From the IMG/VR virus record IMGVR_UViG_3300025108_004499: 64,000 bases of DNA; one strand, given 5' to 3'. This stretch comes from a virus. Positions 35,861 through 61,964 of this stretch are shown here, piece by piece. Made by a program: the position numbers and the translations under genes. Every line of letters starts with the position of its first letter. The first letter of the stretch is position 1. The notes below the pieces were generated by a model that ran no database searches, was not told the origin of the DNA, and worked only from the letters and a program-made list of their open reading frames with translations.

Positions 35861-35881
35861 TATGTTCTCCTATAAGTATAA

Positions 35882-35921
35882 CGGCGGAGTATTTAAAGAG
35901 GGTCGACGCATAAAGTCCTCT
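35882..35921 (-). promoter_or_regulatory. Candidate preQ1/preQ0-type riboswitch-like element in the queD 5'UTR
   Basis: AGAGG-ACTTTATGCGTCGAC-CCTCT-TTAAATACTCCGCCG between a perfect promoter and the SD. Confidence 0.45.
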
Positions 35922-35935
35922 GTGTTAATGTACTT

Positions 35936-35964
35936 ATTATACTACAAATTGTTTAGCGTGTCAA
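35936..35964 (-). promoter_or_regulatory. Sigma70-type promoter for queD
   Basis: TTGACA-17-TATAAT. Confidence 0.85.
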
Positions 35965-36496
35965 GTGAAACATTATCCAATTTCCACTCTTTTGGCAGTT
36001 GCCAATCAGCTGTATTGTATATTCTAAATGTTGTCTTTGGAAACCATTCGAACACTTTGGCTATTTGATATATCCAATAACTGTGATCAACGGCATGTGA
36101 GTTAGCACTACTGTATCCTTCTGTGCCTTTGTATATATTATTAACTTTATTATTAGTACTATATAGATCAAATCCTATAACATTAATTTTATTGTCAAGT
36201 GTTGCACCTAGAAGTAATGCGTAAGGTCCACTGCCCCAATGAAAGGGATCATCCATTCTTTGTGTACCTTTTTCAATTAAACTAGGTAATGCTAATACAC
36301 CTAATTCTTTGTTCCAACGTTGCCTAGTGTATATATTTTTGTGATGTGTTAGTGCTTGTTTAACCATACGCTTGTCGCAACATACTAGATGCTGTACATA
36401 ATGATCTCTAAAGATTGCATTACAGCCTATTTTTTCTTGATATATTTTGTCAAGAGGTATACTACTACGGCTAGATCCGTTTCCAATTACTAACAT
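35942..36496 (-). CDS. MptE/DUF115-like Rossmann-fold protein
   Basis: VIGNGSSR, GCNA, SGPYAL, IGFD. Confidence 0.55.
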   Translation of the reverse strand: MLVIGNGSSRSSIPLDKIYQEKIGCNAIFRDHYVQHLVCCDKRMVKQALTHHKNIYTRQRWNKELGVLALPSLIEKGTQRMDDPFHWGSGPYALLLGATLDNKINVIGFDLYSTNNKVNNIYKGTEGYSSANSHAVDHSYWIYQIAKVFEWFPKTTFRIYNTADWQLPKEWKLDNVSLDTLNNL

Positions 36497-36504
36497 AAAT
36501 TTAT

Positions 36505-36984
36505 TTAGCGGGGGTCTACTTTTAGATAGATGTTATCGAACTCTTGCTTTTTGTGTGTTTTAAATATCAAGTGTACACATGTAAACTCGCCTGTCATACT
36601 AACACGATACTCGCCACCATGTACCATATCATCAGGCACTTTCATATGCCAACCATTTTCAACTCGCTCGCCTGGTGCTGTGTTTTGCACATAGCGTTTT
36701 GTAAATGTGTTTAGTTGATGTGAGTGTGAGCCGTCTGTTGCGTATGCTACACCATATGCGGCTGTGCTGTTGCATTCGTAACGCTTTGATCCTACCATGT
36801 AGAACTCTATGTCTTGGTCTGCTGTTACTGGATTGTTTGTTACGCTTATTTCTGTATCTGTAAACACAAATGCATTGTCAAAGCTCATGTACATTATACC
36901 TAACGATATAATTGTTACCATACTAAGTCCGCTTATCAGATTTAGTATTGCTTTTTTTAATATAAATTTTCTATTACTGTTCAT
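36505..36984 (-). CDS. Single-TM protein with extracytoplasmic beta domain
   Basis: Basic N-terminus, TM helix, two Cys. Confidence 0.6.
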   Translation of the reverse strand: MNSNRKFILKKAILNLISGLSMVTIISLGIMYMSFDNAFVFTDTEISVTNNPVTADQDIEFYMVGSKRYECNSTAAYGVAYATDGSHSHQLNTFTKRYVQNTAPGERVENGWHMKVPDDMVHGGEYRVSMTGEFTCVHLIFKTHKKQEFDNIYLKVDPR

Positions 36985-37291
36985 TTCTAAGTTCCTGTAC
37001 TTCTCTAGAAACTGCTTTAAATTCGCTTCGTACTTCAGACAAGTTCTTACTAGCTCTATTTAGCGTCTTTACTAGTTGTCTTATCGTGTAAATTGTCCAG
37101 AACCACCACGTTACTGCTGTTACAGCAAATAGCCCTAACCCTACATAAAATGCTTGTTCAAAATTAATTACACCTGTAGCAACTAAGATTCCGGCAACCA
37201 CCAGAAAAATAGTAGGGACTATCCTTGCGAATGTATCCCATCTCTCGACTTGGGCTTCTATTTGTTTTTCGTTTAATTCCATAATCTTCAT
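36974..37291 (-). CDS. Two-TM protein with C-terminal coiled coil
   Basis: Hydropathy pattern. Confidence 0.65.
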   Translation of the reverse strand: MKIMELNEKQIEAQVERWDTFARIVPTIFLVVAGILVATGVINFEQAFYVGLGLFAVTAVTWWFWTIYTIRQLVKTLNRASKNLSEVRSEFKAVSREVQELRNEQ

Positions 37292-37294
37292 TCT

Positions 37295-37328
37295 GCCTTT
37301 TGTTATCGGAGGCTCGTGGCGAACTCCG
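37295..37328 (-). promoter_or_regulatory. preQ1-I-like H-type pseudoknot (candidate riboswitch)
   Basis: CGGAG-TTCGCCACGAGC-CTCCG-ATAACAAAA-GGC; loop GCC can pair with tail GGC, 3 nt before the ATG. Confidence 0.55.
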
Positions 37329-37397
37329 TGTTACTCATGACTTTAGTGTCATAACGCATACTATTTAATACTTTCTAAGGGTTGATTAAATTGGAAC

Positions 37398-37817
37398 TTA
37401 ACCTGATATTGCACCAAAAGATCTCCACTCACCTGGAGTACCAGTTCTAACACAAATCCAACCTAAGTTGCCGCCTGGGGTAGGTGCATCATGCCATACA
37501 ATATCACCTTGATTGTAAAGACCAATAGTTGGGATACCGTCACCAACTTCCATCTTTTTGTTTTGAAACTTAACAGGTCCGTTAGTTTCTAATGCTACGC
37601 CATTTGATACTGCTGAAACACCAATTCCTACATTACCTTCAAATACTGTGTTTGAAGATCCTTGTACTTTAAGTGTGCCGCCGCCATCAATAATAAGTCT
37701 TGATGTTGTATCGTCTCCAGCGATTTGATTGATTGATAGAAGTGCATTACCTAAACTGTTTAGACCTTCTTTAATTGCAAGAACGTTCTCTGCACTTATG
37801 TTTACTAATGCTGTCAT
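37398..37817 (-). CDS. Fibre-tip-like protein, paralog of the upstream gene (start revised to 37817)
   Basis: C-terminal PT.G.YNQGDIVW..P..GG..GW.C...G.PG.W..FG. Confidence 0.65.
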   Translation of the reverse strand: MTALVNISAENVLAIKEGLNSLGNALLSINQIAGDDTTSRLIIDGGGTLKVQGSSNTVFEGNVGIGVSAVSNGVALETNGPVKFQNKKMEVGDGIPTIGLYNQGDIVWHDAPTPGGNLGWICVRTGTPGEWRSFGAISG

Positions 37818-38881
37818 GCTTCTATCTTCCCAAATTGTTTCCATGTACCAGGTGCACCACTTTCTACACATACCCAACCCATAAAGCCTCCTGCTTGTGG
37901 ATTAGTATCGTATACAATATCACCTTGGTTGTTGTTTCCTGTAGTAGGCATTTCGTTACCTACTGCTAATCTTTTGTCTGCAAATCTAATTGCGCCTGCT
38001 ACTTGTAAATCTACATCGTCACCTGGATACTGTACTTTAATACCTAGTGTGCCTTTTACTTCAACACCGCCTTGTTCTTTAATAACAATACGTTCTTTGT
38101 TGTCTGTAATTAGACTCATTTTACTTGTAGTATATGCACCTACTCTAATATGATCAAACTCAGGATCAACTACAAACTCTGCTTCGTTACTTGCTACACT
38201 TAATTGTGCATTAGGTGCTTCAGCACCAATAGCAAAACGCATTGTTCCACTATCGTATGTAACAAATTCGTCAACACTTAGATCGCCTGCTATACGTAGA
38301 CTGTTTAATGTTCCTACAGTTTCAAGTTCACTGTGCTTAACAGTAACACCTAACTTGTCTGCACTTAGTACAGGAATATTATCAATTTCAATTACTGCAT
38401 TTCTATGTAGGTCAATTGTATTACTAATGTAGAATCTATCTCCACGCCATACAATTTGTTTAGTTGCTTCACCGTCTTGTCTCCATTGCATACCCATCAT
38501 GTCAATGGTTCCGCCTTGAGCAGTAAAGTCAATATTTTGTGTAACTTTTTGTGTTGAACTTAGTTCTTCAACGTGTAGTTTGCCAGCAGTGAGAGTTCCC
38601 TGCACATTTAATGCTCCACTTACGTCAATGTCGCCTATTAGGCTATCAACGTCCATACTACCTACAGTAATCAAATCATCTTCTACAAGCAAACTAGTTC
38701 TAGTTGCTTTGTCATTGATACCTGTACTTCTAAGTAGTGTAATTTTACCGCCATGCACTGCATTACCGCTAATACTGTTTACAGTTGCGGGTGGCATTTC
38801 TGCGGCTTGTGTGTTTGCTATGGTCTCAACAGTCGTTGCTAGACGTGCGAGGCCTTCTCTTATATTATCTATCTGGCTCAT
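37814..38881 (-). CDS. Fibre-like virion protein (start revised to 38881)
   Basis: Beta-strand repeats, SELETVGTL, same C-terminal domain as its neighbour; TAAATA 5 nt before the ATG. Confidence 0.65.
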   Translation of the reverse strand: MSQIDNIREGLARLATTVETIANTQAAEMPPATVNSISGNAVHGGKITLLRSTGINDKATRTSLLVEDDLITVGSMDVDSLIGDIDVSGALNVQGTLTAGKLHVEELSSTQKVTQNIDFTAQGGTIDMMGMQWRQDGEATKQIVWRGDRFYISNTIDLHRNAVIEIDNIPVLSADKLGVTVKHSELETVGTLNSLRIAGDLSVDEFVTYDSGTMRFAIGAEAPNAQLSVASNEAEFVVDPEFDHIRVGAYTTSKMSLITDNKERIVIKEQGGVEVKGTLGIKVQYPGDDVDLQVAGAIRFADKRLAVGNEMPTTGNNNQGDIVYDTNPQAGGFMGWVCVESGAPGTWKQFGKIEA

Positions 38882-38892
38882 GTAAGTATTTA

Positions 38893-40200
38893 TCAACTTA
38901 CCTTCAGAAGCACTGTATCCGCATTTATCCTACCGTTAAGTTTAATGTCTACAGCATTGATATCTTCTAAGAATGTACGTAGTTTAACCTTGCCTGCCTC
39001 TTTAAACTCTTTAAGTTTTTCTTCAGGCTTACGCATTGTCTTTTGAATACTTTCTGTTTCATTAAATCCAATAATAGTAGTACCTTTTACACTAAGTCCA
39101 CTACCTTCACGTTGCATACCTTGCGGATCTATGTTCTTAGCAACATACTTACCAATCTTACGTGTCTTAACATTAAACACCCAAAGCTCATTTGCATAGA
39201 TAATTTCTATTGGATTAATACTTGCAAGACTGTTCTTATTGTCCACTTTGCAATATTTTAACTTCTCAACTAGTTTCTCAGCACTCTTAGGCTTACGTTT
39301 TCTAGTCTTACGTGTTGCTTTACTTGTATCAACTACTAGTTGGCAAGCCATTTGTATATTGCCCATTGCTTCTAATATTTTTTTAACATCATCTTTGTTA
39401 AGATGTGCATATGCTTCTTTGAGTTGTTCCAACATGTCTTGTGCATGTTCGTCCATCTTTGCAATTTTAGCCTTACTAGGATAGTTCAATAGTTCTGTGT
39501 ACTCTGATATTTCATCATCATAGAAACTAGATATTCTACGTGCATGAGCTTGTGTTACACCAAAGTTTTGAAAGTGTTGTTTAAAATTAAACCCTTTAGG
39601 GTCAAATGACTTTGGGTCTGTTATCCACCCATCTAACCATTCTTCAATTTCTTCTGATTGAATATTTACTTGCTCACGTATACGTTCTTGTATAGTAGGT
39701 TGATGTACTTTTGCTTTTTCTTCTTCTACTTCTTTCTTTTGTGTAAGTAGATATTCGCCTTGTGATATTGCTTCTACAATACGTTTCTTTAAGAATACAC
39801 TAGCAGGAGCAACATCGCCCATTGTTCCAGCAAGTGTTTGCCAGTAGTCGTCATGCTTCTTATTGTAGTCAGGCATTCCTGCCATTAATAGTTTAGCAGT
39901 AATGCTACCTGTAATGCTTAATGCATGTGTTGGTGCGGCCCTAACTGCTTTAATTTGTTCTTTTGTATAACCTTCTTTAGTCATCCAACCTGAAACTGCT
40001 GGATATAAGTCTGCAGGTTTATAATTCTCGTAATACCATGCTCGTGCATGTTGACTGGCTTTGTGAAACTGCTCTCCAGTCCATTCTTCCCAACCGTCCC
40101 AACTAGGTTCAGTAAGTTTATTGCCTCGTTTAATACGTGGTGCACCACGGGGAGCCTTCTTTTTAACAGCTCTACCTGTGATCTTATTTACTCTAGCCAT
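38893..40200 (-). CDS. Hypothetical phage protein, early-promoter driven
   Basis: 435-aa ORF with GAGGAG SD. Confidence 0.7.
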   Translation of the reverse strand: MARVNKITGRAVKKKAPRGAPRIKRGNKLTEPSWDGWEEWTGEQFHKASQHARAWYYENYKPADLYPAVSGWMTKEGYTKEQIKAVRAAPTHALSITGSITAKLLMAGMPDYNKKHDDYWQTLAGTMGDVAPASVFLKKRIVEAISQGEYLLTQKKEVEEEKAKVHQPTIQERIREQVNIQSEEIEEWLDGWITDPKSFDPKGFNFKQHFQNFGVTQAHARRISSFYDDEISEYTELLNYPSKAKIAKMDEHAQDMLEQLKEAYAHLNKDDVKKILEAMGNIQMACQLVVDTSKATRKTRKRKPKSAEKLVEKLKYCKVDNKNSLASINPIEIIYANELWVFNVKTRKIGKYVAKNIDPQGMQREGSGLSVKGTTIIGFNETESIQKTMRKPEEKLKEFKEAGKVKLRTFLEDINAVDIKLNGRINADTVLLKVS

Positions 40201-40226
40201 GTGCCACTCCTCTAATGTGTATAAAC

Positions 40227-40255
40227 AGTATATAGCCGACTTAACAAAAAGTCAA
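40227..40255 (-). promoter_or_regulatory. Sigma70-type promoter
   Basis: TTGACT-17-TATACT. Confidence 0.75.
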
Positions 40256-40258
40256 GCA

Positions 40259-40960
40259 TTATTGGAAATATTTTTTTTGATGAAATGCTCGTTTGTACAT
40301 ATTATGTAAGAACAAGTTCATTTTACTTCTAGTAGTTGGAGCCTCATATTTGAGTGTATGCTTCCAATTTTCTCTTTTAAAAGGTATTACTTGTACCAAC
40401 GGTTCGCCTGGCTTAATTAGTTTTACAGGATCAGTTAGGTAACAAGGAAAATTAAGATTGTTTAAATCAAATTCATCAGTATCAATAATTGCAGGCATTA
40501 TTACAAACTCTTGATCAAAATGCCAAAACGGTTGTACAAACAAACAACTATAACCTGGAGGAGTTTTGATCTTCCAAGGCACAGATACTTTAATAAAAGA
40601 TTTCTTTTTGCCTTGTATGTGTACAGGACATTGTTGGTTTGAATGAAATGCACTTGGAGAAGTAAACTTGTTTTGTACTTCCATAAACTCACCAATGCGT
40701 TCAACAGGATATACTCTTTCAAGTTCTTCTTCGCCTGTATCATGATTAGTTTGTGCTATAATTTCTTGTTCATATACATTAGGTATAATGTAACCTGCAG
40801 TTACCATATCTCTCACAGGCCAACAGCCTGCAATGGTTGGAACACCATTGTCGTCATTTGCTTTAAGACTGCTATACCAATCAGGCAAGCAATCTTTAGC
40901 AGGTACGATAGGAAAATTTGTTAAGACACTTTTGTCACCACAAATAAATTCGATATCCAT
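40259..40960 (-). CDS. DUF6065-like (dUTPase-like fold) protein
   Basis: C.PVRD..TAGY.I, PWKIKTPPGYSCLF, IIDTD, GEPLVQVIPF. Confidence 0.55.
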   Translation of the reverse strand: MDIEFICGDKSVLTNFPIVPAKDCLPDWYSSLKANDDNGVPTIAGCWPVRDMVTAGYIIPNVYEQEIIAQTNHDTGEEELERVYPVERIGEFMEVQNKFTSPSAFHSNQQCPVHIQGKKKSFIKVSVPWKIKTPPGYSCLFVQPFWHFDQEFVIMPAIIDTDEFDLNNLNFPCYLTDPVKLIKPGEPLVQVIPFKRENWKHTLKYEAPTTRSKMNLFLHNMYKRAFHQKKYFQ

Positions 40961-41157
40961 TAAGTACTTTCGTTCATGTTAATACAAATTGCTTGATGTC
41001 CTGCTTCAAAGTAACCATTACCTTTGCCATGTTCTACACTAAGAACATCTCTTGCTTGAAAGCATTCAGTCATTGTTGAATGAACACTAACAAGTTCTGC
41101 AAAAGGTGTTACTTCAAAAAAGTATACAAATACTAGAGTCCACATATTATTCTCCAC
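40960..41157 (-). CDS. Hypothetical protein
   Basis: Short ORF tiling the operon. Confidence 0.55.
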   Translation of the reverse strand: MENNMWTLVFVYFFEVTPFAELVSVHSTMTECFQARDVLSVEHGKGNGYFEAGHQAICINMNEST

Positions 41158-41380
41158 CTCCAGAAACTACGTATGTTCCTACTGTGCGATTATATGCTTC
41201 TATAAGCATTTCCCACATTTCGTTACTTAATAATAACATTTCGTCAACATCGATAGTTTCGTTGTACTGCACAAGATACACACCCTCTTCATCAAAGTGT
41301 GCTTTTACATCTTCAAACTTTCCTGTTGTATCCATTACAGTTACAACAGATTCGTCAAAGTTTTCTTCTACAGTAAACAT
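41147..41380 (-). CDS. Acidic hypothetical protein
   Basis: Short ORF tiling the operon. Confidence 0.6.
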   Translation of the reverse strand: MFTVEENFDESVVTVMDTTGKFEDVKAHFDEEGVYLVQYNETIDVDEMLLLSNEMWEMLIEAYNRTVGTYVVSGGGE

Positions 41381-41381
41381 T

Positions 41382-41597
41382 TTATAATCCTAGTATACCA
41401 AATAGGTTGAACCAACCCATTGATGTTCCAATAATTATAGGTACACCTAACATCATAAAAGCAATGATGAAGAACGCTATGCCTACACCTTTGTTGTGAT
41501 ATGGTTCGTTTGGATTACTCATGTTCGCCACCATAACCACGTGAGTTAATTCCGTTGTCTCTACGGAACGCACTTGGATTACGTTTTGCGGTTTCAA
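41382..41597 (-). CDS. Small membrane protein (true start probably MSNPNEP near 41521)
   Basis: C-terminal TM helix. Confidence 0.5.
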   Translation of the reverse strand: MKPQNVIQVRSVETTELTHVVMVANMSNPNEPYHNKGVGIAFFIIAFMMLGVPIIIGTSMGWFNLFGILGL

Positions 41598-41955
41598 ATG
41601 TTGCTACTGTTACTGCAATCGCTCCTAGCAATAGTGCGTGTATAATCATACTAATTACACCTGCCCACATACTACTTACAATAATTGCAAATACAATACA
41701 CCACATCCATGCAAGTACTTGCATGATCATATGCCGTGTGCTAAAGTCTGGAATGTTACTCAACGGATTCATATTATGATCCATTACTACATTCCAACAA
41801 TTATAAATCCATTCTCTCATTGATATAACCTTTCTAAATGTTACCTTTACTGGATAATGTGCGTCGGCGACATCGCGCCAATCTATTGCGTCATACAGAT
41901 CATGAAATGTCTGTGTAACTTTGTGATTCTTAAAATATGCTGTGACCTTATACAT
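41515..41955 (-). CDS. Membrane protein
   Basis: Two TM helices in the C-terminal half. Confidence 0.6.
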   Translation of the reverse strand: MYKVTAYFKNHKVTQTFHDLYDAIDWRDVADAHYPVKVTFRKVISMREWIYNCWNVVMDHNMNPLSNIPDFSTRHMIMQVLAWMWCIVFAIIVSSMWAGVISMIIHALLLGAIAVTVATFETAKRNPSAFRRDNGINSRGYGGEHE

Positions 41956-43277
41956 TAGATCTTCTCACCAGCTTGAAATCCACGAAACGTTTTGAATCGT
42001 GGAAATCTCAAACTGTAAGTGTCACTGTCTTGTGATTGTGTTCGAGCATCTGCTCTAATTTCAATTAACTGACCAATGAGACTAGAACGTTCAGTCCAGT
42101 ACTCATCACGTTGAGCGTCAGTGAAACCGCTCCCACAGTTAAGGCGATAATTGTATCCATCGTCTTCTCCTTCTACTATTACGGCACCTAGTCTTCCTTC
42201 GTTACGTCCTGTGCCTTCCTCAACGTCAACGACGGTTAGTGTAATTTCAATAAAAGGTTTTGCTTTGAGCCAAGCATGTGTACGTTTACATTCGTAGGGT
42301 GCATCAATGTCTTTTATCATAACCCCTTCATAGCCACCGTCTACAGCCGTCTTATTAAGCTCTACAAAGCGTCTATTGCCTTCATCAGTACTCAAGTCTA
42401 CCTCTTCCCATTCACACGCTGTAACGTGCTCTAAGAGGTCTTGATTCTCCAGTACCCAATACTTGACTAAGTTACTACGATATGTTTGTGGTTTATCCCA
42501 ACCACCTTCTAAAAAGTCTTTCAATGGAATAAAGTCAAACAAGTGTAGTACACTATCAGTTGCGGCTTTACCATCTTTTCTATGTACTTGCTTCATAAGG
42601 TCTTGGAAGTCTTTGCTCATTACTTCGCCGTCAAGTACACAATCATATGGACTAGGCTTTGCGGCAAGTACTGCTTCAATCTCTGCGATGATGTGCGGAA
42701 AGTTATGAAACTGTTTTCCATTACGTGAGAACAATTCTACCTTACCACCTTTGCATACTGCTAGTACACGAACACCGTCTAGTTTAACTTCAATTTGTTT
42801 TTTGCCTACCATCTTCTTTTCATGGTTAGCTGAGTCGTGTGCAAGTGAACAAGTAAATGTAGGAATTGCATACTGTGGAAACTTTTTAGCAATCTTGTTT
42901 ACAGTCTTTTCACTACAACCACAACGTAGGTCTTTGATTAAGATACGTCTATAAAATCCATTCCACTGTTCAGTAGTAGCAACACCCATTGCTAATATGA
43001 TAGCATCACGTGCCGCATGACCTGTAAGTTCTCTATTAATAAGTTGGTTAGCAAGGACTTTAAATGTATCCCAATCTAATCCTTGTCCTGTAAGCACATC
43101 TGTACGTTCAGGTACTTGCTTCACACCAAATGTAACAAGTGGATCAAGAGCCATACGTACACCTTCAAAGAACTCATCTAGTCCTTCTTCCATTGCTTCT
43201 AGTATTACTTGTTCCTTAGCAAGACGTGAATTATCTGCTTCTAACTTTTCTATAATAGCCTGTGGTTGCGTTCTCAT
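41955..43277 (-). CDS. lig: ATP-dependent DNA ligase
   Basis: KLDGVR, LDGEV, FD, EGVMIK, WLKAKP, GSGF, LRFPRF. Confidence 0.95.
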   Translation of the reverse strand: MRTQPQAIIEKLEADNSRLAKEQVILEAMEEGLDEFFEGVRMALDPLVTFGVKQVPERTDVLTGQGLDWDTFKVLANQLINRELTGHAARDAIILAMGVATTEQWNGFYRRILIKDLRCGCSEKTVNKIAKKFPQYAIPTFTCSLAHDSANHEKKMVGKKQIEVKLDGVRVLAVCKGGKVELFSRNGKQFHNFPHIIAEIEAVLAAKPSPYDCVLDGEVMSKDFQDLMKQVHRKDGKAATDSVLHLFDFIPLKDFLEGGWDKPQTYRSNLVKYWVLENQDLLEHVTACEWEEVDLSTDEGNRRFVELNKTAVDGGYEGVMIKDIDAPYECKRTHAWLKAKPFIEITLTVVDVEEGTGRNEGRLGAVIVEGEDDGYNYRLNCGSGFTDAQRDEYWTERSSLIGQLIEIRADARTQSQDSDTYSLRFPRFKTFRGFQAGEKI

Positions 43278-43305
43278 GTGTGCCTCATTAATTAATTATG
43301 TTACT

Positions 43306-43334
43306 ATAATAGCATCAGTATATACAAATGTCAA
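43306..43334 (-). promoter_or_regulatory. Sigma70-type promoter for the ligase
   Basis: TTGACA-17-TATTAT with extended -10 TG. Confidence 0.7.
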
Positions 43335-43354
43335 CCTCTTTTGGACAATAAAAT

Positions 43355-43428
43355 TGGCATAGGTGGAGGGAATCGAACCCCCATTAACTGGTTTGGAATC
43401 AGTTGTGTTACCATTACACCACACCCAT
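43355..43428 (-). tRNA. trnW: tRNA-Trp(CCA)
   Basis: Acceptor stem ATGGGTG/CACCTAT, anticodon loop TTCCAAA, T-loop TTCGATT, encoded CCA. Confidence 0.9.
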
Positions 43429-43465
43429 AAAAAAAGCCCCTAATAAAATTAATTACTAGGGGCTT
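43429..43465 (-). terminator. Intrinsic terminator (attenuator) abutting the tRNA-Trp 5' end
   Basis: AAGCCCCTAGTAA-loop-TTATTAGGGGC followed by T7. Confidence 0.85.
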
Positions 43466-43494
43466 ACTGAAATAACTTTTTTTACAAAGTCATG

Positions 43495-43554
43495 TCAAGA
43501 CATACCCCCGGATGGTGGCCAACAAGTAATATATGTTGTATTAGTCTGTGACAT
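43495..43554 (-). CDS. 19-aa Trp-containing leader peptide MSQTNTTYITCWPPSGGMS
   Basis: AAGGA SD 8 nt upstream; lies between a perfect promoter and the terminator in front of tRNA-Trp. Confidence 0.7.
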   Translation of the reverse strand: MSQTNTTYITCWPPSGGMS

Positions 43555-43585
43555 GTTAGTATTCCTTATTTCTTATTATGTATTT

Positions 43586-43614
43586 AATATACACTCTTTA
43601 TTTTAGTTTGTCAA
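43586..43614 (-). promoter_or_regulatory. Sigma70-type promoter of the leader/tRNA-Trp unit, overlapping a TAAATA
   Basis: TTGACA-17-TATATT. Confidence 0.8.
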
Positions 43615-43771
43615 CATCTTTTTTGTCTGCTCTACCTTTTTTTCCGCAGTGTGGACAATGAAATGTTGTTCGTTCAATGCAATACTTGTCTTCCATAGTA
43701 GCGAATGTAAACCAGCCCTTACATTGAGTGCAGGTTAAATGCCATATGATTTCTTTTACCGCATTGAACAT
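43598..43771 (-). CDS. 57-aa zinc-ribbon protein (not in ORF track)
   Basis: MFNAVKEIIWHLTCTQCKGWF...FHCPHCGKKG. Confidence 0.7.
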   Translation of the reverse strand: MFNAVKEIIWHLTCTQCKGWFTFATMEDKYCIERTTFHCPHCGKKGRADKKDVDKLK

Positions 43772-43798
43772 TGTAAAAGTATTTAGCTTACCTATCTT

Positions 43799-43951
43799 TT
43801 AGATTTTTTGTAATCTTGGATCTGAACTTAGTATGTTCTTTTCAGCTCTTGGTCTAGACAAACGATTCTCAGCCATTTTGCGTATTATTGCTTTATGTGC
43901 TAGTTCTGTTTTTCTTTTCTTACGAGCTAGTTCGAAGTCTTTGTGATTCAT
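43799..43951 (-). CDS. 50-aa basic protein downstream of the glutamine riboswitch (not in ORF track)
   Basis: MNHKDFELARKKRKTELAHKAIIRKMAENRLSRPRAEKNILSSDPRLQKI; GGGAG SD. Confidence 0.75.
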   Translation of the reverse strand: MNHKDFELARKKRKTELAHKAIIRKMAENRLSRPRAEKNILSSDPRLQKI

Positions 43952-43975
43952 AACACTCTCCCTTTTACAGTTAAG

Positions 43976-44021
43976 TGCGTTCCTTCGCTTAGTGCTACTT
44001 CCGGGCTTATTGCCTGAACGT
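43976..44021 (-). ncRNA. glnA-motif (glutamine-I) riboswitch aptamer
   Basis: CGTTC-AGGC-AATAA-GCCC-GGAAGTA-GC-ACTAA-GC-GAAG-GAACGC has P1, P2, P3 and the conserved GGAAGUA/GAAG junction. Confidence 0.8.
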
Positions 44022-44025
44022 AATA

Positions 44026-44403
44026 TTATTTAGCTCTAGATTGGTAGTCTTTTATTGCTGATTTGATTGCATCTTCGGCAAGTACACTGCAATGTATCTT
44101 AACTGGCGGTAGTGCAAGTTCTTCTACAATGTCCATATTCTTAACTGCTGATGCTTCGTCTAGTGTCATTCCTTTTACCATTTCAGTTACTAAACTTGAA
44201 CTTGCTATTGCACTACCGCAACCGTAAGTTTTGAATTTAGCATCTACAATAACGTTATCTTCTACTTCTATCTGTAGACGCATAACATCACCGCAGGCAG
44301 GTGCTCCTACCATTCCTGTTCCGATGTTATCTTTACTAGGATCAAACTTTCCAACGTTGCGGGGGTTTTCGTAATGGTCCATTACTTTTTCTGAGTAGGC
44401 CAT
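44026..44403 (-). CDS. iscU: Fe-S scaffold IscU
   Basis: YSEKVMDHYENPRNVG, PACGD, GCGSAIAS, LPPVKIHCS. Confidence 0.95.
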   Translation of the reverse strand: MAYSEKVMDHYENPRNVGKFDPSKDNIGTGMVGAPACGDVMRLQIEVEDNVIVDAKFKTYGCGSAIASSSLVTEMVKGMTLDEASAVKNMDIVEELALPPVKIHCSVLAEDAIKSAIKDYQSRAK

Positions 44404-44448
44404 ATAATAGTCTCTGTAGTTATACTACATTTATTTATGACCATTAGT

Positions 44449-44523
44449 TGGTAGTCCCAAGGGGAATCGAACCCCTCTTTTCAGGATGAAAACCTGATGT
44501 CCTAACCGATAGACGATGGGACC
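44449..44523 (-). tRNA. trnE: tRNA-Glu(TTC)
   Basis: GGTCCCA/TGGGACT, anticodon arm TCAGG-TTTTCAT-CCTGA, CCA end. Confidence 0.92.
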
Positions 44524-44533
44524 ATATCTTACT

Positions 44534-44608
44534 TGGCTGGAACGATAGGACTCGAACCTATAATCACTTGTACCAAAAACAAGGGCATTACCATTATGCT
44601 ACGTTCCA
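44534..44608 (-). tRNA. trnQ: tRNA-Gln(TTG)
   Basis: TGGAACG/CGTTCCA, CTTGT-TTTTGGT-ACAAG, CCA end. Confidence 0.9.
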
Positions 44609-44621
44609 TTACCAGTTAAAC

Positions 44622-44697
44622 TGGTGCCGGCACACGGACTCGAACCGCGGACCTACTGATTACAAATCAGTTGCTCTACCAACTGAGCTATGCCGGC
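44622..44697 (-). tRNA. trnT: tRNA-Thr(TGT)
   Basis: GCCGGCA/TGCCGGC, ACTGA-TTTGTAA-TCAGT, CCA end. Confidence 0.95.
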
Positions 44698-44699
44698 AT

Positions 44700-44789
44700 T
44701 GGCGGAAGATGTAGGATTCGAACCCACGGTAGAGTCACCCCTACGACGGTTTAGTAAACCGCTCCTTTAAACCACTCAGGCAATCTTCC
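44700..44789 (-). tRNA. trnS: tRNA-Ser(ACT), class II
   Basis: GGAAGAT/ATCTTCC, GCGGT-TTACTAA-ACCGT, long variable arm GTAGGG-GTGA-CTCTAC, G73, CCA. Confidence 0.9.
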
Positions 44790-44799
44790 AGTTTGTTAT

Positions 44800-45210
44800 T
44801 TATTTTGTAAACTTTAGTCTTTGTTGTTTACCGTTATACATAAAAGTTACAACCGAATGACTATAAACTTCACGCTGTGATTCTTCATATCTAGTTTCAA
44901 TTTGACACTCTCGACGTGTACCACTTGGTTTCTTTTGTGCTTTATCTGCACCAATAACTCCTCCAAGTATTGCACCTGCCGCGGCACCTTTATCATTACC
45001 ACCTAGTACTTTACCTAGTACACCGCCAATAATCATTCCGCCCAAGGCACCTTCTCCTGCATTAGATCCTTGAACAGTTACATCTTTACACACTTCAACT
45101 CTGTAAGGTGTTTGCTCAATAACTATTTTATATTGATCTGTTACAGTTTCAGCTATTGCTGATGTAGACATCAAAGTAAAAATTCCTGCTGTAATAAATT
45201 TATTCATCAT
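44800..45210 (-). CDS. Glycine-zipper 2TM protein
   Basis: Signal peptide; GALGGMIIGGVLG..GAAAGAILGGVIG. Confidence 0.8.
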   Translation of the reverse strand: MMNKFITAGIFTLMSTSAIAETVTDQYKIVIEQTPYRVEVCKDVTVQGSNAGEGALGGMIIGGVLGKVLGGNDKGAAAGAILGGVIGADKAQKKPSGTRRECQIETRYEESQREVYSHSVVTFMYNGKQQRLKFTK

Positions 45211-45373
45211 TGTCTCCTTTTAATTGTTTAATTCTATCTTTCATCCAACCAATTGCGGTATGTATATGTCCTGTGTCATGTTCTTGTAACTGACTCTGTG
45301 CATATTTAACTTCATCTTCTAAGTACTTGACTCGGATAAGGTTTCCGCTAAAGTCTTTTAATTTTCCTTCCAA
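45200..45373 (-). CDS. 57-aa hypothetical protein (TTG start, not in ORF track)
   Basis: EGKLKDFSGNLIRVKYLEDEVKYAQSQLQEHDTGHIHTAIGWMKDRIKQL fills the gap; AGGTGAG SD. Confidence 0.5.
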   Translation of the reverse strand: MEGKLKDFSGNLIRVKYLEDEVKYAQSQLQEHDTGHIHTAIGWMKDRIKQLKGDNDE

Positions 45374-45720
45374 AACTCACCTAACCTTACTTTGTAATCT
45401 TCTTTAGCAATAACTTCAATGTTAGTTACTCGGTCGTATCTAAAACTACGAAAGCCTTTTGATTCAACTGCCCACACTGCACAGACTTTGTCCGATATCT
45501 CTCGAACTTTCTTTTGGGTGATTGCATCATCTTTTTTAGCTGGAGGAAGAAAGTCTGCAATAAGTGTACAAGGCATTTTGCGTTCATCACCATTTAATTT
45601 TTTAAATGTAACTACTGCTACTTCTTTCTTTAACAACTCCATAAGTGCATCTCTTGTTGGGATGCCTTTTAAACTTGCTACTGTTTCTTCTACAGTTGTA
45701 TCTACCATATTATTCTCCAC
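45358..45720 (-). CDS. WYL/Sm-like SH3-fold protein
   Basis: VTFKKLNGDERKMPCTL..VWAVESKGFRSFR. Confidence 0.7.
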   Translation of the reverse strand: MENNMVDTTVEETVASLKGIPTRDALMELLKKEVAVVTFKKLNGDERKMPCTLIADFLPPAKKDDAITQKKVREISDKVCAVWAVESKGFRSFRYDRVTNIEVIAKEDYKVRLGEFWKEN

Positions 45721-45838: not shown

Positions 45839-46003
45839 CTATAACTCCTCTACAATACCAAGTATTTCTGCAACAAGAAATCCTACGGCTAACCAGCCCC
45901 AACTATATGTAACTAATGCAACTACACAACCTGCAATACGTACTGCACTTTTTACAAGACTAATATAAAAATGTTTCTTACTTACGTCTACTGGTTCAGC
46001 CAT
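45839..46003 (-). CDS. 54-aa membrane protein (not in ORF track)
   Basis: MAEPVDVSKKHFYISLVKSAVRIAGCVVALVTYSWGWLAVGFLVAEILGIVEEL; TAATG coupling to clpP. Confidence 0.65.
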   Translation of the reverse strand: MAEPVDVSKKHFYISLVKSAVRIAGCVVALVTYSWGWLAVGFLVAEILGIVEEL

Positions 46004-46593
46004 TACATTTTCTCCACAATGCGATCAATAAGTCCGTACTCAAGAGCTTGCTGTGCAGACATAAATGTATCTCTATCCATGTCTCTAGTAAAGTCCTCAA
46101 ATGTTTTACCTTTAGTGTTGTGCTTTACATACAAATTAGTAAGCATTTCTTTATAGTGCATAATCTCTTTGTATGAGATTTCAATATCACTAGCCATACC
46201 TCTTGCTCCGCCACTAGGCTGATGAATCATGTGCCTTGCGTGTGGTAACATCATTCTATGTCCTGCTTCTCCTGCCTGTGCTAGGAAACTACCCATTGAA
46301 CATGCTTGACCCATTACAATAGTATGTACTGGTGACTTAATAAATTGCATTGTATCGTAAATGCTTAGACCGTCACTGATAACACCGCCTGGACTATTAA
46401 TATAAAAACTAATAGGCTTACCTGGTGCTTGTGATTCTAAGAATAATAATTGTGATACAATTAGACTTGCTGACATTGAATTAACATCAGTGTCCATAAT
46501 TATAATACGGTCCTTTAGTAGTCGACTATAAATGTCATAACTACGTTCACCTTTAGATTCTTTTTCAACAACAACTGGTACTAAATTAGGCAT
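46003..46593 (-). CDS. clpP: ClpP protease subunit
   Basis: DIYSRLLKDRII, YINSPGG, ACSMGS, MIHQP, MDRD. Confidence 0.95.
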   Translation of the reverse strand: MPNLVPVVVEKESKGERSYDIYSRLLKDRIIIMDTDVNSMSASLIVSQLLFLESQAPGKPISFYINSPGGVISDGLSIYDTMQFIKSPVHTIVMGQACSMGSFLAQAGEAGHRMMLPHARHMIHQPSGGARGMASDIEISYKEIMHYKEMLTNLYVKHNTKGKTFEDFTRDMDRDTFMSAQQALEYGLIDRIVEKM

Positions 46594-55983: not shown

Positions 55984-55986
55984 TCC

Positions 55987-58233: not shown

Positions 58234-58250
58234 ACATCTATTTATATATA

Positions 58251-58270: not shown

Positions 58271-58313
58271 AATATAACATACTTACGTATAGATAAGCAT
58301 ACTAAATACTTTT

Positions 58314-58544
58314 ATGACAACATATAAAGAAGAACAAGATGGATTATGGGCCGCATTAGACGAAGCATTTCCTATCAACACTAAATTACAAACAAATCTC
58401 AATGATGAAGTTACTAAACTTGAAATGAGTCGTATAAGTGAAGCACTAAGAGAACATGATGGTAATCAAACTAAAGCCGCAAAGTCTTTGGATTTAGGTA
58501 GAGTTACATTTATTGCTAAGGCAAAAAAGTACGAATTAGTTTAA
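58314..58544 (+). CDS. Stand-alone Fis-family HTH protein
   Basis: LE..RI.EAL..HDGNQTKAAKSLDLGRVTF..K.KKY. Confidence 0.88.
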   Translation: MTTYKEEQDGLWAALDEAFPINTKLQTNLNDEVTKLEMSRISEALREHDGNQTKAAKSLDLGRVTFIAKAKKYELV

Positions 58545-58567
58545 TATTATTTCTTTGTAGTGAGGCG

Positions 58568-58581
58568 CCCTCACGCTCTAC
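58568..58581 (-). repeat. Copy 2 of the 14-bp repeat, within a hairpin
   Basis: GTAGAGCGTGAGGGCGCCTCACTAC. Confidence 0.6.
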
Positions 58582-58590
58582 TATAAGTAT

Positions 58591-59277
58591 TTATTTAATC
58601 TTAGGAAAGAGCATGTCTGTGCAGAATTTATCAACGTCTGCTTCATTAAGCCCTAGGCTTTTCATTACTCTTGGGGTATGTGGATTTTGTTGCTGATTAT
58701 GGCAATAGTAGTTTTGACTTGCAATAGTTAAGTCTCTATCACCTTCGCCTGTATACTGGCCAACGGAATCAAAGTACGTTTCAAGGTTGTCAAGCGCCAG
58801 TTGAATAATAACAGTTGCTTCTTCTTCCTTTACATTGCTTGCCGCAATCATACTTGGAGTAAAGATGTTTGTTGCCCACTCGGGTAACTCACGCTTCTTT
58901 TCTGGCACAAAGTCTTGTACTGCACTCTGATACCATTGAACCATAGGGTGATCTTCTCCGCCTGAACTAGCAGAAAAATCATGGAAAGCACCAGTCATTT
59001 TAGTCTTTCCTGCAATAACGTCAAATCCGTAAATTGGACCGTTATTGTTAAGTTGTGGAAATACACAAACATGCATCATCCACAAACCTTTAGTATCTCT
59101 TGCGTCGACTACATCAATATGAGCTCTGCGAACATGTTCGTTCTCCCATACTCTGTTAATCCAACTCCCGTCAGCCTGATTAAAATGGTCCATTCCTGGT
59201 TCATTTATTTCAGTGCCGCGGGCATTGAACATTTGAATGATATCTTCTTGACAGTCGACGAGTTGATCCCAGATCAC
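58591..59277 (-). CDS. pcyX: Ferredoxin-dependent bilin reductase, PcyX/PcyA-like
   Basis: W.NRVW...RRAHIDVVD..GLWMMH.C.FP, PIYGFDVIAG..K.TGAFHDFS, RELPEWA..IF, QN.YC.NQQQNPHT; next to heme oxygenase. Confidence 0.85.
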   Translation of the reverse strand: MIWDQLVDCQEDIIQMFNARGTEINEPGMDHFNQADGSWINRVWENEHVRRAHIDVVDARDTKGLWMMHVCVFPQLNNNGPIYGFDVIAGKTKMTGAFHDFSASSGGEDHPMVQWYQSAVQDFVPEKKRELPEWATNIFTPSMIAASNVKEEEATVIIQLALDNLETYFDSVGQYTGEGDRDLTIASQNYYCHNQQQNPHTPRVMKSLGLNEADVDKFCTDMLFPKIK

Positions 59278-59296
59278 TTTACTCTCCTACTTAACT

Positions 59297-59890
59297 TTAG
59301 TAAGTGAAATTGTTTAGTTCTTCAAAAATTGCTGTTGAAAGTTCAAAAGCCTTATTAGCTTCGTCAGCCATGCTATCTTTAGTACGCTTACGAATTAATG
59401 CTTTCATTTCATCTACAGAATGATTCATATCTGCGAATGCATACATTCTACCTGATCCAGGTACTTTGTTTGCAATCATTTGTCCGCCACTCAAATCGCC
59501 CATGTGTCTTACATAAACGTGTGCAAACAATTTGTCTTTATCGTGTTGACAATTTTTTACAATGTGACTTCTGTATGCTTCTGCTGAAGGTGCTATCTGT
59601 GGTGGATTTGAACCATCTTCGGCTCCACCTAATTCTACGTAGTCTGCCCAAATATCATCTGCTTGGATTAAACCATCTAATGGTAGATCGTCATCCGGCA
59701 TTGATAAATCTTCTGGTCCAAAACAACCCATGCTTAGTGCAACATCTTCTAGGATGTCATATACTAACCACATGTTGTATAGGTATGTTTTATATTTTAC
59801 TTCGCTCATTTTGCCAGACATCATTTCTCTTGCGAATTCCTGACGTTCTGCGTTCTGATGAGCGGCTTGTGTTAGTGATGCTAAACTCAT
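59297..59890 (-). CDS. hemO: Biliverdin-producing heme oxygenase
   Basis: LT..AH..AE, AHVYVRHMGDLSGGQMI, EAN.AF. Confidence 0.92.
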   Translation of the reverse strand: MSLASLTQAAHQNAERQEFAREMMSGKMSEVKYKTYLYNMWLVYDILEDVALSMGCFGPEDLSMPDDDLPLDGLIQADDIWADYVELGGAEDGSNPPQIAPSAEAYRSHIVKNCQHDKDKLFAHVYVRHMGDLSGGQMIANKVPGSGRMYAFADMNHSVDEMKALIRKRTKDSMADEANKAFELSTAIFEELNNFTY

Positions 59891-59941
59891 TTAATTACTC
59901 CTTGTGTAATAGTTATCATTCAATTTACTAGTGTATTTATA

Positions 59942-60253
59942 CTATTCTTTTTCAATTGCCACCTGTAAAGGATAGCCATGTTCTCTAGAAATCTTAGTAC
60001 ATTCCACTGCTTTTTGTTCAGCAATCTCATATGTGTATAGTCCAACTACTGCTGAACCTTTCTCATGTATTGCCATAGTTAGTTCTTGTGCAGTTTGTGC
60101 TGAATGCCTAAAAATATCTACTAATAAATCTACAACAAAATCCATAGGAGTTTCGTTGTCGTTAGCAAAGATTACTTTGTATTTGCCCGGCTCTTGGACA
60201 ACTTCTTTAATCTTTTCTTTTACATTAATTTCTGTTTCTAGTTCTACGCTCAT
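59942..60253 (-). CDS. clpS: ClpS adaptor
   Basis: YKVIFAND..TPMDFVV..L...F, IHEKG.AVVG.YT.EIAE.K, YPL. Confidence 0.92.
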   Translation of the reverse strand: MSVELETEINVKEKIKEVVQEPGKYKVIFANDNETPMDFVVDLLVDIFRHSAQTAQELTMAIHEKGSAVVGLYTYEIAEQKAVECTKISREHGYPLQVAIEKE

Positions 60254-60271
60254 ATCATTTTCCTTTGTTTC

Positions 60272-60293
60272 GGGGGAGTTATTGCACTCCCCC
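60272..60293. other. Stable intergenic hairpin (mRNA 3' stabiliser or terminator)
   Basis: GGGGGAGT-6nt-ACTCCCCC between hsp20 and clpS; no U-tract. Confidence 0.5.
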
Positions 60294-60301
60294 TAGACTG
60301 T

Positions 60302-60760
60302 TTACTTACTTTCACCGTCAATTGTAAGACCATCATTGATCTTAATTGTTTTAGGCTTTAATGCCTCTGGCAATTCACGTTCTAAGTGAATGTTAAGCAT
60401 GCCTAGCTCAAGGCTTGCATTTTTAACATTTACATGATCTGCAAGTGTAAACTCCCTGCGGAAACTACGTCCGCCAATACCTTTGTGTAGGTAATTGACT
60501 TGTTCATCTCCTTTAGGGGCAGTTCCTTCAATCTTTAGTGTATCACCGTCTTTAGTAATATTAAGATTGTCCATACCAAAGCCAGCAACTGCGACTGAGA
60601 TCATATACTCGTCATCGTTGATTTGTGCTATGTTGTATGGTGGATACCCATTTCCGTTTGGACTATTTGCGAACTGCGTGTTCATTTGTTCAAATAATCT
60701 ATCAAAGCCTACTGTGGCTCTGTGGAAGTGTGGTAGGTCTAGAGTTGTTAGTCTTGTCAT
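60302..60760 (-). CDS. ibpA: Small heat-shock protein, IbpA-like
   Basis: VGFDRLF, YPPYNI, AVAGF, YLHKGI..RSF.R.FTLA, GML.I.L. Confidence 0.93.
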   Translation of the reverse strand: MTRLTTLDLPHFHRATVGFDRLFEQMNTQFANSPNGNGYPPYNIAQINDDEYMISVAVAGFGMDNLNITKDGDTLKIEGTAPKGDEQVNYLHKGIGGRSFRREFTLADHVNVKNASLELGMLNIHLERELPEALKPKTIKINDGLTIDGESK

Positions 60761-60842
60761 TGTTTTCTCCTTATATTAAGCAAGATTAATTTTACAGTCC
60801 CTTATGGGCACTGCATGTACATTGAGCTCTTCTCTTTGTACG
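60761..60842 (-). promoter_or_regulatory. ROSE-type RNA thermometer in the hsp20 5'UTR
   Basis: Two upstream hairpins, then TCTTGCTT-AATAT-AAGGAGA pairing the SD with a bulged G. Confidence 0.7.
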
Positions 60843-60845
60843 TTA

Positions 60846-61964
60846 TTATTTATCATCTGACGCATATACTCCATTAAATTGTTGAGTACAACGTACAAAC
60901 GTTGTGCATTTGCTAAGTTGCTTTAGCTTCAAAGCGCCTGCGTATGTGCAAGTACTACGCAAACCGCCTAGTATATCCTGCACTGTAACCGCGACATCGC
61001 CCCTATACGGAACAAAAACTTCGCGGCCTTCTGATGAACGATAGTCTTTAAGTCCACCAAAATGCTTTGTGTTAGCGGCATCACTACTCATACCGTAGAA
61101 CTGTACAAACTGTTTTTCTTGTACTTTACGTTTATGATTACTTAAATGATCGCCAACTTCATATTCTAATTCATCTGTCTGATAGTACTTGGTAATTACT
61201 TCACCGCCGCCTTGATCATGGCCAGCAAGCATACCACCGAGCATAACATAGTCTGCTCCACCTGCAAAGGCCTTAGCAACATCACCAGGGCAAGTACACC
61301 CACCGTCAGCAATAATGTGACCCCCAAGTCCATGGGCGGCATCTGCACATTCGATGACGGCAGATAACTGCGGATATCCAACACCAGTTTGTATCCGAGT
61401 AGTGCAAACACTCCCGGGACCAATACCCACTTTAACAATATCTGCTCCACTTAAAATTAACTCCTCTGTCATTTCTCCGGTAACCACGTTACCTGCTATA
61501 ATTACTATATCTGGAAACTTTTCACGTACTTTACGTACTCTTGCCGCAAAGTGATCCGAGTATCCATTTGCAATGTCCATACAAACATATTTTAAATTAT
61601 GTACTACATTGTTGTACACATCAACCAACTTATGAAAGTCAGCATCACTTGTACCAATACTCATAGCAACATTGGCTGTACGCTCTGGTATGTCACTGTT
61701 AAAGTATTCCGTAAGTTGTTCTACTGTATATGTCTTTACTAGACACGTAAAGATGTTGCCTTCAGCAAGTTTGTCTGCCATTTCAAATGTACCAACACCG
61801 TCCATGTTAGCCGCCATAATAGGAACACCTTCGTATTCTGCTTTACTGTTTCTAAATTTAAACTTGCGTTCAAGCCTAACTTGTTTGCGTGATACAAGTG
61901 TTGAACGCTTTGGACGTATTAATACATCTTTGTAGTCTAGTTTGATATCTTGATCAATCCGCAT
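60846..61964 (-). CDS. guaC: GMP reductase
   Basis: [56 protein letters not shown]. Confidence 0.93.

Follow-up and report, generated by a model that had tools for sequence, protein, structure and literature searches.

Five conserved leader RNAs in a genome segment of an uncultured marine T4-like myophage

The virus record IMGVR_UViG_3300025108_004499 contains a stretch of 64,000 nt (hereafter the window) with 37% G+C, densely packed genes and a predominance of the minus strand. Here, we describe five leader elements that lie within 25 kb of this window, all on the minus strand and with coordinates verified against the sequence: a pseudoknot in front of a PTPS/QueD-like gene (E1), a pseudoknot in front of a gene that we call p105 (E2), a Trp unit in front of tRNA-Trp (E3), a glutamine riboswitch (E4), and the leader of hsp20 (E5). 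The window carries the gene set of a T4-like marine myophage, including DNA ligase, IscU/NifU, tail-fibre-like proteins, Hsp20, ClpS, and ClpP, as well as ThyX, PhoH, heme oxygenase, and a bilin reductase. No GenBank phage is close to it at the DNA level; a 682-aa cyclase-like protein shares 65% identity with Methylophilales phage Melnitz and 45% with Pelagibacter phage HTVC008M. Judged by its genes, the source is an uncultured marine T4-like myophage, kin of Melnitz and HTVC008M.

The five elements belong to five separate transcription units, of which those of E2, E4, and E5 stand behind late-type promoters and those of E1 and E3 behind sigma-70-type promoters. A sequence-only reading of this DNA had placed a Trp attenuator, a Gln riboswitch, two preQ1-like elements, and a thermometer here, and all five were found where it had put them, each recurring at the homologous site in relatives. 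The comparison sets, which consist mostly of related uncultured marine phage contigs from IMG/VR, provided 55 unique PTPS leaders, 29 p105 leaders, 53 Trp units, 16 Gln aptamers, and 56 hsp20 leaders (related loci and contigs carry L-numbers, L001 being Melnitz, MZ577097.1). The outcome named beforehand as refuting, in which most of the elements would fail covariance tests, did not occur: all five are conserved, with model or covariation support for E1, E3, E4, and E5 and mainly conservation for E2. The best explanation, which we hold to be probable, is that each of the five units begins with a leader RNA, conserved and structured, whose most likely role is to set the amount of the downstream product.

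The glutamine riboswitch was confirmed by its covariance model. The E4 aptamer, of the glnA type (43974-44022, minus strand), matches RF01739 over the full model (1-53) with 42.5 bits against a gathering score of 35 (E = 6.8e-6 in the 64-kb window), and RF01739 is the sole non-tRNA Rfam family above its gathering score in the window; by this match, E4 is shown to belong to the known glutamine riboswitch family. A late-type promoter, TAAATA (44027-44032, minus strand), overlaps the stop codon of IscU/NifU directly upstream of the aptamer. On the other side, an expression platform and an open reading frame (ORF) that are conserved behind phage aptamers span 43799-43977: CACUU (43973-43977) can pair with AGUG (43954-43957), the two flanking the Shine–Dalgarno (SD) sequence GGGAG (43958-43962), and a basic ORF of 50 aa follows downstream of the SD (43799-43951, minus strand). 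Phage Gln aptamers were gathered with a pattern that fixes the core and leaves variation possible in the stems only; the 16 unique sequences have the core CGUUC...GGAAGUAG...AAGGAACG in common and differ in their stem sequences. Every complete phage aptamer unit, including that of Melnitz, continues with the CACUU, SD, and AGUG platform and then a small basic ORF of 32-63 aa. At least three unrelated families of small basic ORFs stand behind phage Gln riboswitches. One relative (L316, minus strand) carries tandem Gln aptamers about 10 nt apart (4209-4253 and 4263-4309, in reverse-complement orientation) in front of a 32-aa basic ORF of the 'WCYLK/FCYLK' type.

E4 has the same small three-stem aptamer as the glutamine riboswitches (RF01739) of cyanobacterial gifB leaders, Melnitz-like phages, and pelagimyophages, and the gifB riboswitch likewise lies ahead of the gene for a small basic protein (PMC6212724). 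It differs from them in lying between iscU/nifU and the 50-aa ORF, at the 5' end of a late-type transcript. E4 very probably acts as a sensor; its aptamer would gate translation of the 50-aa basic protein, presumably as an ON switch if the cyanobacterial gifB case is a guide.

The comparison with Melnitz bears on the published record. Gln riboswitches have been described as 'common but not defining' in Melnitz-like phages, and the Melnitz copy was read as controlling tmRNA (PMC9004378). This copy (L001:11573-11615; together with platform and ORF 11573-11740, corresponding to about 46400-46567 of MZ577097.1) shows the same CACUU...SD...AGUG platform, followed by an unannotated basic ORF of 32 aa (MTLYQQWCYLK...), across which a 'hypothetical protein' is annotated on the minus strand. 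This arrangement suggests a correction to the literature, in that the Melnitz riboswitch probably gates the small unannotated basic ORF rather than tmRNA.

The thermometer proposed in front of hsp20 also found support, to the extent that the leader is ROSE-like by model, signature, and gene context. From its 5' end, the unit consists of a late-type promoter read as ATAAATA (60847-60853, minus strand) and conserved in relatives, a hairpin GUACA...UGUAC (60817-60841), a second hairpin CAGUGCCC-AUAA-GGGACUG (60795-60813), an SD hairpin with a bulged G (60766-60785) in which UCUUGCUU (60778-60785) pairs with the SD AAGGAGA (60766-60772), and the hsp20 gene itself, encoding 152 aa (60302-60760; PF00011, 53.7 bits; phrog_432). 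The SD hairpin carries the U(U/C)GCU signature of ROSE elements opposite the SD. In a search of the 121-nt leader, ROSE_3 (RF02523) was the best of all Rfam families, with 26.8 bits (E = 4e-4) over 60758-60853 and with both hairpins aligned, and it was found at the same site in 6 of 20 relatives with 24.3-35.8 bits; ROSE_2 gave 10.7 bits, and RF00435 was not among the matches listed. By blastn against 50,697 GenBank phage records, E5 matched Melnitz only.

The comparison set of 56 distinct leaders was drawn from IMG/VR relatives and from Melnitz, Prochlorococcus phage P-SSM3, and Synechococcus phage S-RIM12; the Hsp20 proteins of these phages share only about 30-40% identity with that of the window. 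Common to the leaders are a late-type promoter, a hairpin built around GCC-N4-GGG, U(U/C)GCUU, an AU loop of 3-6 nt, and the SD AAGGAG. The UYGCUU motif is near-invariant, with both UUGCU and UCGCU variants occurring, and the U-to-C variants convert a U.G pair opposite the SD into C-G. In the upstream hairpin (60795-60813), all five outer pairs show compensatory two-sided changes among 50 aligned leaders. MAFFT misaligned the SD hairpin, and the pairs of that helix were counted separately. For the isolated SD hairpin, the predicted free energy rises from -7.6 kcal/mol at 4 °C through -5.0 at 20 °C to -2.2 at 37 °C. Several points weigh against the thermometer: E5 stays below the ROSE_3 gathering score (43) in the window and in all relatives, the SD strand cannot vary, so that the SD helix is backed by conservation only, and in the full leader the predicted probability of an unpaired SD is 0.34-0.51 and has no clear temperature trend.

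Like the Pseudomonas ibpA thermometers of the ROSE_3 family, E5 has two hairpins, U(U/C)GCU opposite the SD, a bulged G, and a small heat-shock gene behind it. It differs in being phage-encoded, in its T4-late-type promoter, in its score (24-36 bits against the gathering score of 43), in an additional third 5' hairpin in the window, and in an AU-rich stem whose marginal stability at 37 °C points to a lower set point. E5 is thus likely a ROSE-like thermometer that represents a variant of the family rather than a model-level member, and we consider its action as a sensor likely as well. On the late hsp20 mRNA, UCUUGCUU would pair with the SD; by prediction, this hairpin holds at sea temperatures and becomes marginal on warming, and it would make translation respond to temperature. 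A literature search returned no report of a phage hsp20 thermometer. It is worth mentioning that the Rfam family 'freshwater-2' (RF02980) matches hsp20 leaders below its cut-off of 49.9 bits (34.9 bits at L158:1425-1503 and 17.9 bits at 60758-60812 of the window), and it may be the freshwater-phage counterpart of the E5 leader. The phage encodes ClpP, ClpS, and Hsp20 together (46003-46593, 59942-60253, and 60302-60760, minus strand), and heme oxygenase and a ferredoxin-dependent bilin reductase are found at 58591-59890.

The E3 and Gln units lie about 420 nt apart, next to a cluster of four tRNA genes, in agreement with the spacing of about 400 bp proposed earlier. Its promoter (TTGACA, 17 nt, TATATT; 43586-43614, minus strand) matches the consensus at 11 of 12 positions and is conserved in relatives. 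It is followed by the SD AAGGA, a leader ORF of 19 codons plus UGA (43495-43554) with a single UGG at 43519-43521, an AU hairpin, an intrinsic terminator (43429-43465), and tRNA-Trp(CCA) (43355-43428; ARAGORN; RF00005, 62 bits), which starts at the base after the U-tract. Past the UGG, the leader carries a C-run (43513-43518) and then a G-run (43505-43509). The terminator, with arms AAGCCCCUA and UAGGGGCUU, a U7 tract, and a 13-pair stem that a scan located at 43434-43465, is the sole strong intrinsic terminator in 35500-45500.

We searched for related units with a pattern for the block around the stop codon that excluded UGG, and obtained 53 distinct E3 units on 87 viral contigs. In 51 of these the leader ORF can be read (the contig end truncates the other two), and all 51 contain UGG, at codon 10-12 of a frame of 17-21 codons. 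tRNA-Trp is the first downstream gene in 52 of the 53 variants, even though identity among the tRNAs falls to about 74% and the leader peptide is variable (e.g., MSQTNTTYITCWPPSGGMS, MSKTIRTQLCWPLRGMS, and MLRQIQQKLYWCLYRGMS). RNAalifold on 40 leaders predicted a helix between the start and stop regions of the ORF that is present in all variants, a hairpin inside the ORF whose pairs show compensatory changes in 9 and 4 sequences, a hairpin of the C-run and G-run immediately past the UGG, and the terminator; the 1:2 pairing is part of this consensus fold. A blastn search of 50,697 GenBank phage records with E3 gave a terminator-like match only.

Predicted duplex energies are -6.6 kcal/mol for 1:2, -11.2 for 2:3, and -18.4 for 3:4, similar in size to those of leader-peptide attenuators such as E. 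coli trpL, with which E3 also shares the promoter, the SD, a short codon-bearing ORF, the predicted 1:2/2:3/3:4 segments, and the terminator. In constrained folds that contain no ribosome, the leader pairs with itself and leaves the terminator arm free, and a ribosome placed at the stop codon covers the G-run. If the ribosome sits at UGG, which lies 10-19 nt before the G-run, the G-run and the next bases pair with the 5' arm of the terminator (-19.3 kcal/mol) before the 3' arm is made, and only these folds give the antiterminator. The sigma-70-type promoter would thus drive a 19-codon leader and then meet a strong terminator abutting tRNA-Trp. Stalling of a ribosome at UGG would make the G-run available to the 5' arm of the terminator and allow read-through into tRNA-Trp, while the terminator would form with no ribosome or with one at the stop codon. 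Short supply of Trp-tRNA would open the terminator before tRNA-Trp (and, in relatives, before a tRNA array too), so that tRNA-Trp supply is fed back onto its own gene. The attenuator proposed by the sequence-only reading stands as to its conserved RNA structure, its UGG in every readable leader, and its attenuator-like predicted folds, while the mechanism is inferred.

E3 differs from the trpL type in having a single Trp codon and not a run, and in controlling tRNA-Trp and not a biosynthetic operon or a synthetase. We know of no precedent for an attenuator that controls a tRNA gene, and a literature search for attenuation of a tRNA gene returned none. About 9 of the 53 variants (including L068:3066-3157 and L069) have an insert of about 90 nt between the terminator and tRNA-Trp, with its own long inverted repeat ACUACACUA...UAGUGUAGU plus a U/A tract. 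In a single E3 unit (L333:306-442; L333, minus strand), ARAGORN found no tRNA-Trp and a tRNA-Cys about 70 nt further on; in the leader of this unit, W is followed by C (…LQFWCSP…). In the window, ARAGORN also reported a tRNA-Ser with anticodon ACT (A34) at 44700-44789 (minus strand), which is unusual for an AGY box.

E1 is an H-type pseudoknot (35880-35921, minus strand) in the 5' leader of a 149-aa PTPS/QueD-like gene (35411-35871 with its SD AGGAGA at 35866-35871; PF01242, 52 bits; phrog_2389, QueD-like). The promoter upstream (TTGACA, 17 nt, TATAAT; 35936-35964, minus strand) matches the consensus at 12 of 12 positions, is the best in 10 kb, and is conserved in relatives. P1 pairs AGAGG (35917-35921) with CCUCU (35897-35901), and P2 pairs GCG of the loop (35907-35909, within 35907-35910) with CGU (35881-35883, within 35880-35883). 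The layout, namely a 5-bp P1, a loop running from ACUU to UCGAC, a tail ending in UCCGC (the conserved L3), and then P2', was found before the homologous gene in 55 distinct leaders, which represent 23 haplotypes. The parse was fixed by unpaired motifs only, setting the 4 bases before the UC-R-AC loop end against the 4 after UCYGC, and pairs were counted separately from the MAFFT alignment, in which the E1 tails were misaligned. Under this rule, P2 occurs in 9 distinct combinations with 3.44 of 4 positions paired, compared with 2.07 in permuted sets; a value as high arises in 15 of 5000 permutations. In P1, three positions have compensatory changes. Two variants that came to light afterwards also conform, namely L388 with ACUU:AAGU and L400 with ACGC:GUGU, the latter with AGUGG/CCACU as P1. 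Two other approaches were given up: a free-register test of P2 was uninformative, with 43% success in swapped controls, and was dropped for the fixed parse, and a pairing-maximising parse was discarded because it chose shifted registers.

E1 matches none of 4227 Rfam families at permissive thresholds (searched with a 26.5-kb span, 1.65 kb, 66 nt, and ten relatives), and blastn found no match in the 50,697 GenBank phage records. A search with our model R1 recovered one copy per viral contig, always before PTPS, while true bacterial QueD loci are without E1. The operon continues with a glycosyltransferase-like gene (phrog_1962) and then a PMM/HAD-like gene (PF03332), spanning 33814-35860 on the minus strand. 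Among 30 window ORFs scanned with Pfam, none was a QueC, QueE, FolE, or TGT gene, and a pterin-related ligand for E1 is therefore as plausible as a 7-deazaguanine. The PTPS, glycosyltransferase, and PMM/HAD genes could form a pathway of the pterin-glycoside type rather than one of 7-deazaguanine synthesis. Contigs L387-L392, which are binned into metagenome-assembled genomes labelled Rickettsiales, Rhodobacteraceae, Crocinitomicaceae, and Neomarinimicrobiota, have the PTPS gene of this lineage at 71-83% identity, and L388 and L392 also have the E1 leader; most of these are likely phage contigs mis-binned into bacterial genomes.

E2 (37295-37328, minus strand) reaches into the SD region of p105, and its 3' end lies 3 nt before the first AUG of that gene. 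P1 pairs CGGAG (37324-37328) with CUCCG (37307-37311), the 12-nt loop is UUCGCCACGAGC and the tail AUAACAAAA, and P2 pairs GCC (37318-37320) with GGC (37295-37297), overlapping the SD. A late-type promoter core, TAAATA, is read at 37362-37367 (minus strand), and the motif is also present upstream in relatives. Across 29 distinct sequences, pairing is kept in 95% of cells, 3 pairs are changed on both sides, and on four of five measures at most 1 of 500 shuffles is as high. About 37% of relatives carry E2, and the others have plain hairpins at the site. E2 matches none of the 4227 Rfam families (26.5-kb span, 1.65 kb, 66 nt, ten relatives; permissive thresholds) and no GenBank phage record by blastn, and the R2 model found it only before p105, in a single copy per viral contig. 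A loose structural descriptor for E2 was dropped as unspecific, with about 13 matches per Mb in shuffled sequence.

The gene behind E2, p105, encodes a protein of 105 aa with two transmembrane segments by hydropathy (36974-37291, minus strand) and a charged C-terminal helix; it is followed by p159, for an N-terminally anchored protein of 159 aa, likewise by hydropathy (36505-36984, minus strand). p105 has no Pfam family above threshold and no PHROG, p159 and p184 (also downstream of E2) likewise have no family assigned, and a homology search with p105 recovered 319 marine metagenomic relatives, none with a function. p105 and p159 come directly after tail-fibre-like genes, behind the late-type promoter; the corresponding position in T4 is that of the holin gene t. 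A lysis cassette of p105/p159 (36505-37291, minus strand) under E2 control is a guess from position and topology.

In both pseudoknots, conserved loops combine with covarying or conserved helices in a manner that resembles small aptamers, and a folded E2 would hide the p105 SD, as a translational preQ1-I switch does. E1 may sense some ligand or factor, to which we give slightly less than an even chance, and for E2 we suggest the same tentatively. Several observations count against such a role. The SD of E1 lies 10-30 nt past the pseudoknot, and a route from its folding to the SD is not apparent. The covariation of E2 rests mainly on one divergent lineage (L045/L046) plus one U-A change, and about 60% of relatives have no E2 at the same place. 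Both elements are absent from GenBank phages and from 42 small alphaproteobacterial genomes, where R1 and R2 gave spurious 17-19-bit matches inside genes. Each has a single gene context, which leaves no hint of a ligand for either.

Four other explanations were weighed, the broadest being that the five elements are chance look-alikes from AT-rich intergenic sequence. Patterns of this kind do turn up readily under loose rules, as the E2 descriptor did in shuffled sequence and the free 4-nt complement search for the E1 tail did in 43% of swapped controls. However, all five elements recur at homologous sites in tens of diverged contigs, and the model matches or covariation were reached under fixed rules; a chance origin is already contradicted by these sequence comparisons, and we regard it as extremely improbable. 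A narrower alternative concerns E3, which could be an independent small gene for a 19-aa peptide or an RNA of about 130 nt with its own terminator, tRNA-Trp then coming from constitutive read-through or from a promoter within the unit (TTGACA at the leader stop, 16-18 nt, TATTTY). The terminator is indeed strong, the block GGGGUAUGUCUUGACAUGACUUU is more strongly conserved than the peptide, and many variants have TATTTT or TATATT at promoter-like spacing after it, so that the conserved block around the stop codon could be the -35 box of such a promoter. Attenuation is further weakened by the single Trp codon (classical trp leaders carry at least two) and by the 2:3 helix, whose roughly 6 pairs are formed by near-invariant G/C runs beyond the reach of covariation. 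Yet the -10-like hexamer is absent in several variants (L304, L346, and L352), and transcription starting there would land at the foot of the terminator hairpin. Pairing with the ORF start, found in all variants, accounts for the conservation of the block; UGG and tRNA-Trp remain linked in 52 of 53 variants despite drift of peptide and tRNA, and the compensatory changes within the ORF argue against selection at the peptide level. We consider the small gene rather doubtful. That E3 acts as a sensor has, in our estimate, nearly an even chance, and we propose with due caution that it is a leader-peptide attenuator whose only product is a tRNA, with a single UGG gauging the Trp-tRNA supply.

For the two pseudoknots, the earlier suggestion of preQ1-like elements is not supported as it stood: neither matches the PreQ1 model, although both are real, conserved structures. 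RF00522 (gathering score 39) gave no match at E ≤ 10 to E1 or E2 in searches with 66 nt, 1.65 kb, and ten relatives, and across whole related contigs its matches reached at most 15 bits, none of them at the E1 or E2 sites. E2, and perhaps E1, could still be divergent riboswitches of the preQ1-I/preQ0 type with a swapped P2. Compared with the RF00522 consensus (aGuGG-UU[10]-CCaCu-AUAAAAAACUAAGg), E2 agrees in the lengths of helix, loop, and tail: its P1 has 5 bp, its 12-nt loop begins with UU and ends with C, its A-rich tail starts with AUAA, and the 3' strand of an equivalent P2 lies in the SD. It differs in that P2 is GCC/GGC instead of UAG/CUA at the same loop positions, in that the closing pairs of P1 are A-U and G-C in place of G-C and G-C, and in that the genes downstream are not queuosine synthesis or transport genes and encode membrane proteins without assigned function. 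For E1 it is the gene context that fits, since bacterial preQ1 riboswitches control QueD-like genes; its loops of 13-15 nt start with ACUU, L3 ends with UCYGC, and the tail UUAAAUACUCCGC is not A-rich and is unlike the consensus, and the partner genes QueC, QueE, FolE, and TGT did not appear among the scanned ORFs. A preQ1 ligand is thus not supported for either element; we think it unlikely for both, and a divergent preQ1 class of this kind likewise. Alternatively, only the Gln riboswitch and perhaps the hsp20 leader may sense, while E1 and E2 are either operators for a phage RNA-binding protein or constitutive structures of the leader, stabilising the 5' end of the mRNA or holding translation at a fixed rate. 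The leader pseudoknot of T4 gene 32 is an autogenous translational operator bound by gp32, and E1 has the same layout, a 5'-terminal H-type pseudoknot on a T4-like early mRNA followed by an AU-rich spacer and the ribosome-binding site, although its gene is PTPS/QueD-like and not that of a single-stranded-DNA-binding protein. This explanation also agrees with the failure of E1 and E2 to match any Rfam family, with their one gene context each, and with the plain hairpin that many relatives have in place of E2. On the other hand, the loops L1, L2, and L3 of E1 are conserved while its helices covary, as is typical of aptamers (a protein site would look alike), P2 of E2 overlaps the SD within preQ1-I dimensions, and no candidate binding protein was identified. 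We judge this explanation to be on the unlikely side, and continue to favour conserved leader RNAs that set the output of their units.

The sensor role of every element other than E4 rests on sequence. The sequence-only reading had gone further and joined the five elements into a common layer that monitors the state of the host; we found no evidence tying them into one coordinated layer, and such a layer is an inference. Its view that this density is unusually high for a virus seems reasonable.

Phage-encoded riboswitches and thermometers are seldom described, and here five conserved leaders are found in one genome segment of a lineage of abundant but uncultured marine myophages. The ROSE-like leader extends to Melnitz and to the two cyanophages that were checked and, if general, would provide a simple explanation for the control of hsp20, a common phage gene. 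E1, E2, and E3 lie outside all Rfam families, and their alignments are ready for testing new aptamer classes; the two pseudoknots may represent novel classes of riboswitch that are restricted to abundant marine phages. If the reading of E3 is true, it would be a new use of attenuation and the first cis-acting feedback known for phage tRNA genes, offering a possible route for phages to regulate their own tRNA supply.

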